Sequence record: NC_073055.1
DNA length: 44,488 nt
From: Escherichia phage vB_EcoD_Opt212
Direction: 5' to 3' (one strand)
Shown: positions 12 to 4,819 of the stretch, piece after piece
Numbering within the stretch: position 1 is the stretch's first letter
Layout of the letters: each line of letters starts with the position of its first letter
Notes under the pieces: generated by a model
What the model was told of the DNA's origin: nothing
Databases searched by the model: none
Seen by the model: only the letters and a program-made list of their open reading frames with translations
Program-made: the position numbers and the translations under genes

Positions 12-1397
12 TTAGTAGAAATCTACGGTAGGAACAACGGCGATTGGACGAATCACAGGGAACAGGTGCGCAATTGGATAACCCGCGGCATCGTTCATGT
101 GGTCCACACCGGCGGTTTTATCCGGCTCGCCTTTCTTCAGGTCGTAAACCTGCTGTTCCAGACATTTCGCTAGTGTAGGGCATTTATCCAGGTTGACAAA
201 ATACTGGCGCACGCCCTTCGAGTTGCACATCATCGTATTCATCGCGATCAATCGGTCTTTCACAGGCGGGTTAACGCTGTCGTATTCCACCTCGAAGCCC
301 GCATCTTCCAGTTGCGCGATATCGGACGACGAAGCGTTAACCGTTTTGCGGGATTTGCCGCTGCTATCCGGGTACACGACAACACGACCGGCAGCGCAAT
401 GATCGGGGTAGCGCTCCTCGATCGCTTCAATCATAGCCGGGGTATCAAACAGGTCCACGAATTCATCCACGGCGTGAATCTCGTCGCGGAACTCCTTGTT
501 CTCGGTGGTACGCTGCCGTCTTACATACACGACCGCCGCCATTTTCGTGACGTTAAAGTCCATACCGATAATCAGCGTGTCTTCCGGTTGTACTTCTTCG
601 GTGCTGGCGTTCTCCTCGCGATTAAACATCTTGTATACCGCGCCCGATGTAAGGTTGACAAACAGGCCGTTCAGGTACGCGTCAATAAGGTTAGCCGGGT
701 ACTGACTGCGCAGCGTGTCGATAAAGTCTGCCGGTAAATGGTGGTTGTCGGTGGTCTTCGCCCGGATCAGGCGCTTTTGGCTATCCTTCTCCACCTCGAA
801 AATCTGGTACATCGCCCGGTAGCCTTCCGGGGTGGACACTATGACGAACTGGCGTACAAAGCCTGCACGCAGACGACCGAGCAATTTGTGATACGCCGCC
901 AGCGCAACGTCTTGCTTCGTGGTATCGAATTCATCGGCAACAATCCACGCGGCGTTAACCCCGATAAGGCGGGTGTAGTTCTCCATCGACTCACAGATAA
1001 CGCGGGTCCATTTGCCTTTCACAAGCACGTTATAGATCTTGTCCTGCTTATTGAACTTCCACCGGAAGCCTGCCTCGTCGAATGCCTTCTCCAGTTCCGG
1101 ATACATGATCTTAACCAGGAGGGGAATAGTCGGTTCTGTAACGATGCCGTCATGACCGGGGTTCAGGGTTAAAAGCTGGATGACCTTACGCGCAGCGACC
1201 CACGACTTTCCACCGCCGAAGCCGGAACACAGGCCGAGGATTTTAGTCTTTGTGTCGCGCAGTAGTTCAACCTGGTGCGGCAAGCAATCAGGCTGATACA
1301 GGCGGACGGCCTGCGCAACGCGTGTCGGTCGCGGCGGTCGATTTCGCTTTGCGATCGCCCGTTCGAGGGCGCGGTGTTCTGCCGCATAGTTACGCAT
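12..1397 (-). CDS. terminase large subunit
   Basis: 461 aa; N-terminal P-loop (LGLCSGFGGGKSW) typical of TerL ATPase; overlaps the upstream TerS-like ORF by 1 nt. Confidence 0.85.
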   Translation of the reverse strand: MRNYAAEHRALERAIAKRNRPPRPTRVAQAVRLYQPDCLPHQVELLRDTKTKILGLCSGFGGGKSWVAARKVIQLLTLNPGHDGIVTEPTIPLLVKIMYPELEKAFDEAGFRWKFNKQDKIYNVLVKGKWTRVICESMENYTRLIGVNAAWIVADEFDTTKQDVALAAYHKLLGRLRAGFVRQFVIVSTPEGYRAMYQIFEVEKDSQKRLIRAKTTDNHHLPADFIDTLRSQYPANLIDAYLNGLFVNLTSGAVYKMFNREENASTEEVQPEDTLIIGMDFNVTKMAAVVYVRRQRTTENKEFRDEIHAVDEFVDLFDTPAMIEAIEERYPDHCAAGRVVVYPDSSGKSRKTVNASSSDIAQLEDAGFEVEYDSVNPPVKDRLIAMNTMMCNSKGVRQYFVNLDKCPTLAKCLEQQVYDLKKGEPDKTAGVDHMNDAAGYPIAHLFPVIRPIAVVPTVDFY

Positions 1398-1969
1398 TAT
1401 TCACCCTGGCCTTTGCCGGAAGGTTCGACAACTACGTCGCCGTTATCATCTTCGTCGTCATCCAGCGGTACATCGTCGCGGACGCCGTGGTTCGCTTTAA
1501 GCAGGAATGTAGCGAAGCCTGCCGCGATGGTCACACCACCGGCTTCCATCAGGAAAGTTTTCTGCAACTCCATAGCGTCCGCCATCGCCTCGGCGAACTC
1601 CTCATGCGCACGCGCCCAGCGATACAGGCAAGCTACGCCCACGCCGATTTCCGCGGCAAATCGACCGAAGGTTGGCATTTTGTTGCGAGGGATTACTTGC
1701 GCAGCGCCTTTATCGGAGTAGTTTACCTGCCAGGCGTCGGCGTCGGCAAAATAGCGGCGAAGCTGGTCACAGTAAACGGATCGGTAGTCCGTAGGGCGTC
1801 CGCATTTACCGCCTTTGCGGCGCTTTCCGTACTCGATTTCAGGTCCGAGATTGGTGTGCTCGGTTTGCTCTCCTGGTTTACGGCGCGGGGTAACTGCGAC
1901 TCGTCCGTCCAGTTTGGCGCGACGGCCCTTAACTTTAATTTCTGCCATGATATAAGCCCTTTTGTTCAT
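1397..1969 (-). CDS. putative terminase small subunit
   Basis: 190 aa, immediately upstream of and overlapping TerL; acidic C-terminal tail; start uncertain (alternative ATG 21 nt downstream). Confidence 0.55.
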   Translation of the reverse strand: MNKRAYIMAEIKVKGRRAKLDGRVAVTPRRKPGEQTEHTNLGPEIEYGKRRKGGKCGRPTDYRSVYCDQLRRYFADADAWQVNYSDKGAAQVIPRNKMPTFGRFAAEIGVGVACLYRWARAHEEFAEAMADAMELQKTFLMEAGGVTIAAGFATFLLKANHGVRDDVPLDDDEDDNGDVVVEPSGKGQGE

Positions 1970-2077
1970 ATGCGCCGACCATCGGCAACATAGGAGACGG
2001 CCCTGCCATCTAAGGGGATTATAACAGGCACAAAAAAGCCCACCAAATCGGCAGGCTGGGAGGCTTATGGGTTGCCG

Positions 2078-3220
2078 TTACTTCAACATTTCCGGGCTAA
2101 TGGTTAAGCGCGCTACTTCGCCGTAGTTGGCGCTATAGGTGATGACGTTTGCGCTGCGACCGGACATCCAACCGCCACGACTGGCGTAGGCGTCTTTCGC
2201 TGCGAGCGTCCGGTGCTGTTCAACAATCATGTTGCGGGATTCTACAATCTTCTGGTGGTGCAAGTGGCCTACGTGCGCGTAGCTGTACTCACTGGATCCG
2301 AAAGCCTGTCTGAATTTAGAAATCATAACCTGCTCGATAGCATCGAATCGCGCTTTGTGCCCGTGGTGGAAGAATAGCGTGGTCTTACCGTGCTGCACCA
2401 TTTTGTAGACGTCCGGGGACGTATCCACATCGACGCGCGGCTCGTTCTCGTACAGAGTATTGAACATCTCAGCCAGCCAAATCATACCCGACTCGTCATG
2501 ATTTCCCTGGACGATTAGCAGTTTGACTTTGTGGTGTTTTTGCAGCGCCAGTTCGACGACGTTGCGCACCATGCGAATCATGTATCGGACCAGTTTCTGG
2601 TATCGGGTGTCGGCGTCCAGTATGTGACCACTTGCCGGAGTGACAGCATCGAGGCTATCAAAGTGCGCCATATCACCGAGGATATTAATTACGGCAGTGC
2701 CTGCGTCCGGGGCGCGTGCGAAGGCTTCGACAAACCAGCGGTAGAACAGGTCTTCGGCGATCGCCATATCCCAGTCTTCGCCAGTCTCCTCGCCCCATGC
2801 CAACATGCCCAGGTGGAAGTCTGACACGGTGTACAGGTTGAGCAAGTCGAGCGCCTGGATCGGTACTGGCGGGGCTTTTACTGGCGCTGCCGGTGTGATT
2901 TCGCTGTTCATACCCTCGACAACAGCGCGCATGGCTTCGAGTTGGCGCTCTTTGTCCTGCTCAGTGATGACCCACGACATGACCTCTTCGCCATTGCCGC
3001 GCACCAGGGCCGATACGCGCTTAACCCCAAACCCATCGGCAACGCGCTTGCGTATTACGGCATCGTTGCCGTGTCCAATGCCTTTTTTCGACAGGCGGGC
3101 TTTCCGCATATAAACATTGCGTAGGGCAATCCCGTATTTCTTCGCAATATCTTTAACCGTAGTCCCTGCCTGAATTTCTGCGATCAATTGCTCATCGGTA
3201 ATTTTAGTTTGCGGGTGCAT
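2078..3220 (-). CDS. HTH domain fused to calcineurin-like metallophosphoesterase
   Basis: 380 aa; N-terminal HTH-like segment (TVKDIAKKYGIALRNV); phosphoesterase motifs SDFHLG, GDMAHFD, GNHDE, HHGH, GHLHH. Confidence 0.7.
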   Translation of the reverse strand: MHPQTKITDEQLIAEIQAGTTVKDIAKKYGIALRNVYMRKARLSKKGIGHGNDAVIRKRVADGFGVKRVSALVRGNGEEVMSWVITEQDKERQLEAMRAVVEGMNSEITPAAPVKAPPVPIQALDLLNLYTVSDFHLGMLAWGEETGEDWDMAIAEDLFYRWFVEAFARAPDAGTAVINILGDMAHFDSLDAVTPASGHILDADTRYQKLVRYMIRMVRNVVELALQKHHKVKLLIVQGNHDESGMIWLAEMFNTLYENEPRVDVDTSPDVYKMVQHGKTTLFFHHGHKARFDAIEQVMISKFRQAFGSSEYSYAHVGHLHHQKIVESRNMIVEQHRTLAAKDAYASRGGWMSGRSANVITYSANYGEVARLTISPEMLK

Positions 3221-3281
3221 ATTTAATTAATTCCTGATTAGTGGACCGTGGACAATATACCACGGCCCACACTGCGGTGCG

Positions 3282-3455
3282 CTATGAGTTGTCTTGCTGT
3301 TTAAATTCCGCCATCACGCGACGGAACTCACCCATAACTTTTCCTTGCTCTTTCTTTGTCAGGAACGAAAGACCCCGGAAGAATGACGCCTCCATTTGGG
3401 AGGCCCGCGGTCGTTCCGCCATAGGGCGGGAATCGCGTTGCGGTTTAAATGCCAT
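3282..3455 (-). CDS. small hypothetical protein (57 aa)
   Basis: ATG preceded by GAGGTGA; not in ORF track (below length cutoff); translated by hand. Confidence 0.3.
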   Translation of the reverse strand: MAFKPQRDSRPMAERPRASQMEASFFRGLSFLTKKEQGKVMGEFRRVMAEFKQQDNS

Positions 3456-3596
3456 AAGTCACCTCACAAATTACCATTCCAATAAATGCCGCGGCGGACC
3501 AGATTGCCAATACCCAAATATCATTACGTGCCATAGTGTAATACTCCTCTTGTTGATTGGTCGCAGTATGGCGCCTATGTTGGTTGCAAGTCAAGC

Positions 3597-3624
3597 AATA
3601 AAAAGCCCGGAATTAACCGGGCTT
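3597..3624 (-). terminator. rho-independent terminator after lysis cassette
   Basis: stem GCCCGG/CCGGGC followed by U-run on minus strand, directly after stop at 3631. Confidence 0.5.
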
Positions 3625-3808: not shown

Positions 3809-4300
3809 TTATGCGGCGTTTCGCCCGATTTTCTCGGCAACGTCCCACTGCTTACCATCAAATAGTGCCTGCCTGCCGATTGCACGACGGACAAGCCCCT
3901 TGAGCACTGCCCCGCCTTGCTTGCGGAATTGTGGCAGCGTAGCACGGACCTTTGCCCAGTCACCCAGGCGGATCGCATCGTCGAAGTCTCCGGCGACGTC
4001 GTCCGGCATGATCGGACCAGGACCGGCATTGATAACCAGGTCCACCAGCGCGTCGAATTGCGCCTGGTTGATGCTCGGGTGTGCGTACTTGTTTACCCAG
4101 TTCTCGGCATACGCCACGTCGCGCTTGAGTAGCTCCAGTGCTTCCGCACGGGTAATGCTCCGCGGCGGATTAGTGCCGGTGTGACCATAGCCCCAGGTAT
4201 ACAGGCCGCGGGCCTGCTCTTTCTTAGTCGCGAAATACGGCACTGGGCTGAATTGCTCCCATGCTGCCGTAAATCTCAGACCGTTGTCACTGAATCGCAT
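3809..4300 (-). CDS. endolysin (GH24 lysozyme-like)
   Basis: 163 aa; GYGHTG and surrounding motifs typical of phage T4/lambda-type lysozyme; downstream of two membrane proteins. Confidence 0.8.
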   Translation of the reverse strand: MRFSDNGLRFTAAWEQFSPVPYFATKKEQARGLYTWGYGHTGTNPPRSITRAEALELLKRDVAYAENWVNKYAHPSINQAQFDALVDLVINAGPGPIMPDDVAGDFDDAIRLGDWAKVRATLPQFRKQGGAVLKGLVRRAIGRQALFDGKQWDVAEKIGRNAA

Positions 4301-4532
4301 GTTTTACCCCATTCAAAACAGCATTACGCAGTGTGCGCAATGCAAACAGCCAGATTAACGCGGTCCAGGTGGTGTCAGATACGTCTCCGGTTTGCAACAG
4401 TCCGATAATGCAGACCATCGCCGTAAGCAGATATAACACCCGACCGAAGAAGCCATCCTGGACGGACGGCGCATACACGTTAAACAGGGACGAAGCCCCT
4501 ATGATAACAAACAACAGGACGGAGATAATCAT
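4287..4532 (-). CDS. holin/antiholin-like membrane protein
   Basis: 81 aa, two hydrophobic segments, overlaps endolysin start. Confidence 0.5.
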   Translation of the reverse strand: MIISVLLFVIIGASSLFNVYAPSVQDGFFGRVLYLLTAMVCIIGLLQTGDVSDTTWTALIWLFALRTLRNAVLNGVKHAIQ

Positions 4533-4819
4533 TTTGCGCCACCCGGAAGTCGGAACGACTCAATAGTCTCCCTGATCCGGGCGGCTATTGGCATCCAGAA
4601 GATTGCAGTTACGAAGCCCAAACCGGCGACAGTGCGCTCGCCAGATAAGCCAGCCCACTCGGCGATAGCTGGCGCACCAAATATGGCACACAGGAAGCCA
4701 ACTACGACATATAAAACGAAGTTCAACGGCCCTTTCGTTGCCTCGCCATGAATGCGTGCGCCTACGAAGCCACCAGCAAGACACGCAAGGGCGAATAACC
4801 ACTCGTTTAGCTTATCCAT
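4529..4819 (-). CDS. holin-like membrane protein
   Basis: 96 aa, multiple predicted TM segments, ATGA overlap with next gene. Confidence 0.5.
   Translation of the reverse strand: MDKLNEWLFALACLAGGFVGARIHGEATKGPLNFVLYVVVGFLCAIFGAPAIAEWAGLSGERTVAGLGFVTAIFWMPIAARIRETIESFRLPGGAK

Follow-up and report, generated by a model that had tools for sequence, protein, structure and literature searches.

Introduction

In Mre11, SbcD and gp47 of phage T4, a nuclease domain of the metallophosphoesterase (MPE) type is accompanied by a capping domain and is partnered by Rad50, SbcC and gp46, respectively; by annotation, T4 gp46/47 are required for recombination and for host-DNA degradation. Phage MPE proteins that act on DNA without a Rad50 partner have precedents. 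T5 A1, which is of the MPE type, needs no Rad50-like partner to act on DNA and is tied to a DNA-binding function; it is both required and sufficient for the degradation of host DNA (bioRxiv 10.64898/2026.04.02.716235). For gp48 of the Cluster A mycobacteriophage A10ZJ24, an early phage MPE with the five motifs, phosphodiesterase activity and damage to the genomic DNA of the host are reported (PMC12287305). Here, we report the computational analysis of a gene of Escherichia phage vB_EcoD_Opt212 (sequence record NC_073055.1; the 44,488-nucleotide stretch that was analysed is referred to as the window) which encodes a helix–turn–helix (HTH) segment fused to an MPE domain. Set against characterised systems, the product (hereafter the HTH-MPE protein) can be placed as a divergent branch among the nucleases of the Mre11/SbcD type; its architecture is unusual in that it carries a fused HTH and lacks both a capping domain and an ATPase partner.

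Gene and family

The HTH-MPE gene is an ATG-initiated open reading frame (ORF) on the minus strand encoding 380 residues, as given in the ORF list of the window. The source genome belongs to Dhillonvirus (HK578-like E. coli siphoviruses), with phage JLBYU37 as the best match (96% nucleotide identity). The protein matches the family phrog_704, named 'DNA repair exonuclease', over its full length (residues 5–380 against profile positions 2–390 of 390, E = 2.6e-161). Homologues were found by tblastn in 2,061 phage records and are at least 95% identical in 151 of these. Kagunavirus and Jerseyvirus relatives are at about 75% and those of T1-like Drexlerviridae and Webervirus at 43–47%; further relatives are found in Casjensviridae, in Autographiviridae (Eracentumvirus) and in Vibrio, Rhodobacter and Campylobacter phages. 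An exhaustive HMMER search gave 4,677 clusters (50% identity) at E <= 1e-3, with 1,133 at E <= 1e-30, and homologues also lie within prophage-like regions of many Pseudomonadota genomes. Most members contain 370–420 residues. The phrog_704 match, the 151 records and the 4,677 clusters point to a relationship far beyond chance.

PHROG 704, which includes the T1-like, Webervirus, Jerseyvirus, Kagunavirus and Dhillonvirus homologues, has the same architecture and length, and the protein is simply a member with no structural difference. The copy in NC_073055.1 is unremarkable within this catalogued family and adds nothing to what the databases hold; near-identical proteins are deposited, and the function is the missing part. 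In GenBank the same protein appears as calcineurin-like phosphoesterase, DNA repair exonuclease, HTH LuxR-type protein, winged-HTH protein, transcriptional regulator, oxidoreductase and hypothetical protein. The family name 'DNA repair exonuclease' is best read as a homology-based guess. A search of NCBIfam with the HTH-MPE protein gave nothing meaningful (PdeM at chance level, E = 0.17).

The coding sequence, the domains and the conserved motifs are as follows.

2078..3220, minus strand: coding sequence of the HTH-MPE protein (380 residues plus stop codon); phrog_704 match, 99% identity to annotated Dhillonvirus proteins
3086..3196, minus strand: N-terminal three-helix HTH, residues 9–45
2906..3031, minus strand: β-hairpin plus helix module, residues 64–105
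2081..2854, minus strand: predicted MPE (Mre11/SbcD-like) catalytic domain, residues 123–380
2807..2821, minus strand: motif I, D134-F-H136-L-G138 (DxHLG); near-invariant in the family, SbcD/gp47 signature
2657..2677, minus strand: motif II, G182-D183-M-A-H186-F-D188; G182 and D183 invariant, H186 and D188 in at least 90% of members
2603..2641, minus strand: loop after motif II, T194-P195...D202-x-D204-x-R206; family-specific, highly conserved, low confidence in the model
2495..2506, minus strand: motif III, G239-N240-H241-D242; N240 and H241 invariant, G239 and D242 in at least 90%
2357..2368, minus strand: motif IV, H285-H286-G287-H288; H286 invariant, H285, G287 and H288 in at least 90%
2255..2269, minus strand: motif V, G318-H319-L-H321-H322; in at least 90% of members

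Domain architecture and predicted structure

The AlphaFold2 model of the 380-residue protein, built with 129 sequences, has a mean predicted local distance difference test score (pLDDT) of 79.8 and a predicted template-modelling score (pTM) of 0.70. It consists of a three-helix HTH (helices 9–17, 22–29 and 33–45, pLDDT 82–87), a two-stranded hairpin followed by a helix (strands 64–73 and 79–88, helix 90–105, pLDDT ~67–77), a linker and an MPE sandwich from residue ~123 to the C-terminus. The sandwich displays the β-α-β-α-β fold of the MPE superfamily. The hairpin module is specific to the family and carries a conserved G77 and a near-invariant W83.

In the single protein, the Pfam HTH matches are weak and sub-threshold (GerE, HTH_7 and HTH_28, E = 0.03–0.06, residues 10–46), and the Metallophos and Metallophos_2 models fall below their gathering thresholds (22.8 bits versus 27 and 20.7 versus 21.5, respectively), so that a single-sequence domain search would not have proven the fusion. 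Across 119 diverse family members, the N-terminal region is matched by HTH_1 in 24, HTH_8 in 14, Sigma70_r4_2 in 12 (best E = 1.5e-9) and GerE in seven (best E = 2.4e-8), and the family profile weakly matches the HTH structures of LrpA and GerE in the PDB. Owing to these matches among family members, the HTH is considered to be real but variable in sequence, being seen in most members under many Pfam HTH models. The fusion of an HTH-like segment to an MPE domain, which a first-pass annotation of the same DNA had proposed from the sequence, is thereby borne out. The family is likely to be too divergent for the Pfam MPE models, and its assignment to the superfamily rests on the motifs and the predicted fold.

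The HTH is the least conserved part of the protein family. A homologue of 317 residues from a Campylobacter phage has no HTH and begins at the hairpin module, with an HMM match from profile position 77; the conserved core is therefore the hairpin plus the MPE domain.

Catalytic motifs

The five MPE motifs (DxH, GDxxD/H, GNH[DE], H and GHxH) are all present and each is kept in at least 90% of the aligned members, so that the complete set noted in the first-pass annotation (DxH, GDxxxxD, GNHD, HH and GHxH) extends to the family. The conservation figures refer to the 150 most similar of the ~4,700 family clusters (50% identity), in close and distant alignments, and the codons of motifs III, IV and V were checked by eye against the DNA. 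Conservation of the catalytic residues at this level argues for an active enzyme rather than a relic.

In the loop after motif II, T194 is invariant in family alignment A3, with P195, D202 and R206 in at least 90% of members, and D204 is invariant only in the narrower family alignment A1. The family-specific positions conserved in at least 90% of members comprise W83, E145, T194, P195, D202, R206, R262, Y362 and the stretch Q335-H336...R355.

Comparison with known nucleases and phosphatases

The family profile was compared by hhalign with an alignment of eight gp47/SbcD sequences and one of seven T5 A1 homologues, both built from annotated records; the relationship to gp47/SbcD was resolved only by such comparison of the profile with a small alignment. 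Against gp47/SbcD, the probability is 96.1% (E = 3.3e-9) over 209 columns, with family residues 126–378 aligned to gp47 1–250 and motifs I, II, III and V collinear. No match of the family profile to lambda NinI was obtained by hhalign. Motif I reads SDFHLG here, SDWHLG in SbcD and GDWHLG in gp47, against GDLHGC in the lambda phosphatase. Mre11 and SbcD were also the closest proteins in the fold search, with MJ0936, YfcE, Rv0805 and Ap4A hydrolase nearly as good. Taken together, sequence and model place the catalytic domain much closer to the Mre11/SbcD-type nucleases than to the lambda-type Ser/Thr phosphatases, which agrees with the first-pass annotation, and the protein has a domain homologous to the nuclease domain of Mre11, SbcD and gp47.

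There are clear differences from this group. Unlike gp47 and SbcD, the HTH-MPE protein has an additional N-terminal HTH and hairpin module and two conserved loop insertions (T194–R206 and Q335–R355), both poorly modelled. Whereas Mre11, SbcD and gp47 have a capping domain, the HTH-MPE protein ends at a position equivalent to gp47 ~250 and gp47 255–339 is unmatched. Searches by phmmer with SbcC and gp46 against the window ORFs of at least 80 residues gave nothing below E = 0.3, although a very divergent partner could escape them, and no SbcC/gp46-like gene is annotated in JLBYU37 or among the homologue neighbours examined in other lineages.

Similarity to T5 A1 is weak (probability 20.7%, E = 1e-3, 126 columns) and covers motifs III–V only, where it is collinear and includes NHDxxxSxWL. 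A specific kinship to T5 A1 as the closest family was rejected, as this match is far weaker than that to gp47/SbcD. T5 A1 further differs in its length (556 residues), in being encoded by a pre-early gene in the first-step-transfer DNA and in that DNA binding is provided by a separate protein, A2. No HTH fusion is described for A10ZJ24 gp48, and Mycobacterium is absent from the ten commonest organism names of the 2,061 matching phage records. Lambda NinH and NinI also pair an HTH with an MPE-superfamily domain and occupy a slot between a junction endonuclease and Q. They are, however, separate genes that are not fused, and NinI is of the PPP-type branch and has no detectable similarity to the Mre11-type HTH-MPE protein, in which the PPP-type signatures GDxHG, GDxVDRG and GNHE were not found. 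By description only, the protein may be likened to PolD DP1 and the B subunits of eukaryotic polymerases (MPE-fold 3'-5' exonucleases or inactive relatives); unlike PolD DP1, it has the HTH and hairpin at its N-terminus, and the PolD large subunit is not present.

T5 A1-like proteins were also found by tblastn beyond the Demerecviridae, in Vibrio, Flavobacterium, Caulobacter (jumbo), Rhizobium and Agrobacterium (Autographiviridae) phages (loci L166–L171), one of them bearing the annotation 'homeodomain-like protein'. Vibrio phage D332 encodes, in this order, an A2-like DNA-binding protein, A1 and the product of a gene named 'polynucleotide kinase', which parallels the HTH-MPE neighbourhood.

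Proposed function

We consider the chances to be slightly better than even that the HTH-MPE protein is a stand-alone, DNA-tethered, metal-dependent nuclease or phosphodiesterase of the Mre11/SbcD/gp47 type which serves phage recombination/repair or host-DNA breakdown. The C-terminal domain (residues ~123–380) would form a two-metal centre from the five MPE motifs and hydrolyse DNA phosphodiester bonds. The N-terminal HTH, probably together with the hairpin module, would give the DNA contact that otherwise comes from Rad50/SbcC and the capping domain, and with DNA binding built in, the enzyme would work without an ATPase partner. Its role would be to process ends or branched intermediates in recombination-dependent replication or repair, and/or to break down host DNA, and it would not be a dedicated part of the packaging machine.

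The proposal is favoured by the conserved catalytic residues, by the closeness of the fold and the profile to Mre11, SbcD and gp47, by the DxHLG form of motif I, by the HTH of most members, by the prevalence of DNA recombination and repair genes among the annotated neighbours in other phages and by the precedents of T5 A1, A10ZJ24 gp48 and T4 gp46/47. Several observations weigh against it. HMM-to-sequence and single-sequence hhalign comparisons with T4 gp47, E. coli SbcD, T5 A1 and lambda NinI were insignificant, and sequence-based searches of the PDB, with the single sequence and with the profile, found no MPE relative, only spurious repeat-protein or weak HTH matches. The AlphaFold2 model is only moderately confident, with the two conserved loops poorly modelled. 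The HTH is absent from some clades (for example, the Campylobacter phages), and tethering by the HTH cannot therefore be essential to catalysis. The gene neighbourhood is heterogeneous, with many lysis, Q and terminase neighbours that are uninformative on DNA repair. Finally, the literature found on the family consists of genome-annotation mentions, with no experimental paper among it.

The large size of the family and its place among the core genes of several model and therapeutic phage groups make it worth biochemical study. Many lambdoid prophages also have a member, and Drexlerviridae, Dhillonvirus, Kagunavirus and Jerseyvirus are widely used in phage therapy and in research on defence systems. 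Such study could reveal a host-DNA-degradation or recombination factor in these phages. If an Mre11-like core were shown to work with a fused HTH in the place of Rad50, this would be a useful addition to nuclease biology.

Gene neighbourhoods

The genes flanking the HTH-MPE gene in the window are as follows.

12..1397, minus strand: large terminase (TerL), with Terminase_6N and Terminase_6C
1397..1969, minus strand: small terminase (TerS), downstream of the HTH-MPE gene; phrog_3064, E = 3.8e-73
3809..4300, minus strand: endolysin, upstream of the HTH-MPE gene
4287..4819, minus strand: two ORFs, holins by annotation in close relatives, upstream of the HTH-MPE gene

The gene thus lies between the lysis and terminase genes, as the first-pass annotation had described. 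Its further statement that this position is unusual did not hold when other phages were compared: the usual place of the family is the nin–Q–lysis–terminase boundary region or a DNA-metabolism module. The terminase-adjacent position says little, and the positional argument fails on comparison.

The gene is a core gene of the Drexlerviridae and is present in most of the Dhillonvirus, Kagunavirus and Jerseyvirus records searched. In the Drexlerviridae it is the last gene of the replication module (helicase, VRR-NUC and Dam methylase) and is followed by holin, endolysin and spanin genes; in a published pangenome analysis, the order exonuclease–holin–endolysin–spanin is found in 508 of 522 Drexlerviridae genomes (PMC13164509). 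Rhodobacter phage RcMaeve has the order holin, endolysin, three small genes, MPE, and in Jerseyvirus the gene is in a small opposite-strand island amid the tail genes. The Eracentumvirus order is 5'-3' exonuclease, endonuclease VII, MPE, a haloacid dehalogenase (HAD) phosphatase (HAD_PNKP), a P-loop protein and DNA ligase, and that of a Campylobacter myovirus is Holliday junction resolvase, two small genes, DNA ligase, MPE.

Neighbourhood counts are approximate, as they derive from a crude ORF caller and pooled PHROG counts. Among 46 divergent IMG/VR loci, the most frequent named genes downstream are Q-like antiterminators (10), endonuclease VII (five), HNH homing endonucleases, genes named polynucleotide kinase (PNK; four) and holins (four); those upstream are NinG/Rap (six), NinB/Orf (~nine), exonuclease (four) and endonuclease VII (four). 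A RusA/RuvC-like resolvase is also among the annotated neighbours of the homologues. Upstream of the gene in 56 prophage loci of bacterial genomes, lysis genes and Q are met most often, and TerL (~seven), TerS (one) or a portal gene (two) occurs within two genes downstream. Of all these neighbours, those that bear on function encode enzymes of recombination and repair. In lambdoid contigs (L038 5516–7472 and L063) the order is Holliday-junction resolvase, MPE, Q-like antiterminator, and the equivalent slot of lambda (L089 1930–4010) holds ninH, encoding a small DNA-binding protein, and ninI, encoding an MPE-superfamily protein phosphatase. The ninH and ninI pair may have undergone non-orthologous replacement by a fused protein of another MPE branch.

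In Vibrio phage 99E28-2 (L004 3740–4067), a four-tRNA cluster and two separate endolysin-annotated genes flank the MPE gene, and an HNH endonuclease gene is immediately downstream.

Predicted transcription signals

The predicted signals around the HTH-MPE gene are as follows.

3603..3624, minus strand: terminator-like hairpin after the lysis genes, upstream of the MPE unit (terminator scan)
3254..3262, minus strand: predicted extended -10 promoter TGGTATATT, 42 nt upstream of the MPE start codon
3241..3270, minus strand: imperfect palindrome GTGGGCCGTGG-N8-CCACGGTCCAC with 11-bp arms, bracketing the predicted -10 element of the MPE promoter
2037..2057, minus strand: terminator-like hairpin with a T-run after it, directly downstream of the MPE stop codon (terminator scan); kept in L009 and L011
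2018..2026, minus strand: predicted perfect extended -10 promoter TGTTATAAT ahead of TerS, ~50 nt upstream of its start; kept in L009 and L011

With the order terminator, extended -10, gene, terminator, the MPE gene appears to be a transcription unit of its own, set off from the lysis and packaging genes. The upstream hairpin (3603..3624), AAGCCCGG...CCGGGCTTTTT, is kept directly upstream of the MPE promoter in the relatives L009 and L011, and a different terminator-like hairpin, AAGCCCGCC...GGCGGGCTT, is at the equivalent place in L014. The sequence CCGTGxTATATTG is invariant in eight Dhillonvirus sequences, and TG(G/A)TATATT is found at -42 or -44 in all seven Dhillonvirus loci examined. A layout of terminator followed by extended -10 precedes both the MPE gene and TerS and may be a general punctuation of the long minus-strand gene array.

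The palindrome (RNA fold z-score of -2.8) could be an operator for the HTH of the protein itself or an RNA/DNA hairpin. Its half-site occurs once in the whole window. A palindrome is present in four of the seven Dhillonvirus loci, the relatives L010, L012 and L013 keeping one; it is degenerate in L009, L011/JLBYU37 and L014.

An extra ORF of 70 residues (MIRQVFMSTQAAR...) lies between the MPE gene and TerS in the Dhillonvirus relatives L010, L012, L013 and L014 (for example, L014 7140–7352). The start codon of this ORF and the stop codon of MPE overlap (ATGA), as if translation of the two were coupled. The ORF is absent from the Opt212 window, L009 and L011, where the terminator and promoter are found instead.

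Alternative functions

The protein might instead be primarily a transcription regulator that represses its own promoter or acts as an early/late switch, with the MPE domain as a sensor or a second function. The HTH is real, the palindrome brackets the gene's own predicted -10, with both arms changed in the relative L013, and the gene is typically at the early/late boundary, beside Q or lysis/late genes. T5 A1, moreover, has been reported to affect transcription besides DNA degradation (bioRxiv 10.64898/2026.04.02.716235). We regard this reading as quite unlikely. The strict conservation of the catalytic residues argues for an enzyme as the main function, the HTH varies most and some clades lack it, three of the seven Dhillonvirus loci have no palindrome or a degenerate one, the palindrome occurs only once in the genome, and lambdoid relatives have the Q antiterminator besides the MPE gene. 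A regulatory role is compatible with the proposed DNA-tethered nuclease, as autoregulation of a potentially toxic enzyme. The nuclease proposal may be extended to a Rad50-independent Mre11-type enzyme with the HTH in place of the ATPase clamp, which also represses itself via the -10 palindrome. In T1-like, Dhillonvirus, Jersey-like and many lambdoid phages, such an enzyme could be the one that breaks down the host chromosome or that processes ends when replication depends on recombination; this extended picture is, as a whole, unlikely. Such an activity might correspond to the classical host-DNA-degradation function of T1.

A similarly low probability is given to an end-healing enzyme, i.e. 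a 2',3'-cyclic phosphodiesterase or 3'-end cleaner which acts with a split polynucleotide kinase/phosphatase (PNKP) and a ligase in the repair of DNA or RNA breaks. Such a role is suggested by the HAD_PNKP-type phosphatase and P-loop protein that come directly after MPE in both Webervirus and Eracentumvirus and are followed by DNA ligase in Eracentumvirus, by the PNK-named genes downstream in four of the 46 IMG/VR loci and by the Campylobacter phage in which MPE follows DNA ligase. This association is found in a minority of lineages only; the HAD protein already gives a 3'-phosphatase in the loci that have one, and neither PNKP nor ligase is annotated for the Dhillonvirus of the window, as judged from its close relative JLBYU37. 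MPE proteins are not mentioned in the PhiKMV ligase-repair preprint.

The genes annotated 'polynucleotide kinase' beside MPE in Klebsiella phage KpV522 (L002 7166–8226) and Erwinia phage S2 (L007 7175–8367) match only the HAD-type PNKP phosphatase domain (PF25109, E = 2.8e-20 and 6.7e-15, respectively). A role of MPE as the 3'-phosphatase for a kinase-only PNK neighbour was rejected, since that 'polynucleotide kinase' is itself a HAD phosphatase domain. The gene after the HAD protein encodes a P-loop protein, annotated as a deoxynucleoside monophosphate (dNMP) kinase in Webervirus and as hypothetical in Eracentumvirus, and together the two could make up a split PNKP or represent a nucleotidase and a kinase. 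The N-terminal similarity of the HAD protein to T5 Dmp is weak (BLASTP E = 2e-3 and 9e-5).

There is a slender chance that the protein is a phosphodiesterase for small molecules, either in counter-defence, acting on cyclic (oligo)nucleotide immune signals, or in metabolism, acting on other nucleotides. Phosphodiesterases of the MPE fold that act on cyclic nucleotides and other small molecules scored nearly as well in the fold search, and in Webervirus the succession of MPE, HAD phosphatase and the dNMP-kinase-annotated gene suggests nucleotide metabolism (PMC13164509). A DNA-binding HTH would have no obvious use in such an enzyme, however, and the profile relationship is specifically to gp47/SbcD. 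PADLOC and known anti-defence families gave no match except a chance-level DrmC match on the HTH, and the gene belongs to the core of several virulent phage families, whereas anti-defence genes are typically accessory and patchily distributed (PMC13164509). Nothing was found in support of the degradation of a host signalling nucleotide, one of two roles that the first-pass annotation had offered. In two papers on m6dAMP-sensing defence, the 'phosphoesterase' is a host protein and not the phage HTH-MPE gene product.

The other role offered was in packaging. The HTH-MPE protein could assist the terminase, for example by cutting or trimming the concatemer at a pac site, like the HNH endonucleases beside HK97-like terminase genes, and the gene is indeed directly upstream of TerS and TerL here; a minority of the 56 prophage loci have TerL, TerS or a portal gene within two genes downstream, and in L043 a small-terminase-like ORF is ~1.4 kb downstream of MPE. 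This adjacency is not kept in Drexlerviridae, Jerseyvirus, Eracentumvirus, the Campylobacter phages or the lambdoid nin-region loci, and the phage groups that share the MPE gene differ in packaging strategy. The hairpin and separate predicted promoter that divide MPE from TerS, the 70-residue gene between them in some Dhillonvirus genomes and the RNaseH-like nuclease domain of TerL itself (Terminase_6C) together argue against a dedicated role in packaging, for which we see a very slight chance.

A conventional lambda-type Ser/Thr protein phosphatase, which would fit the lambdoid MPE genes in the resolvase–Q slot where lambda has ninH and ninI, is barely credible, having been rejected on the motifs, the fold rank and the profile comparison, and is already largely refuted.

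Minor features of the upstream region

Two small ORFs (3282–3455 and 3445–3594, both on the minus strand) lie between the upstream terminator-like hairpin and the MPE promoter. One encodes 57 residues with no family match; the other encodes 49 residues with a hydrophobic, transmembrane-like stretch, and its start overlaps a promoter-like site. The equivalent ORF of JLBYU37 (55 residues) bears the label 'putative major tail protein', apparently in error.

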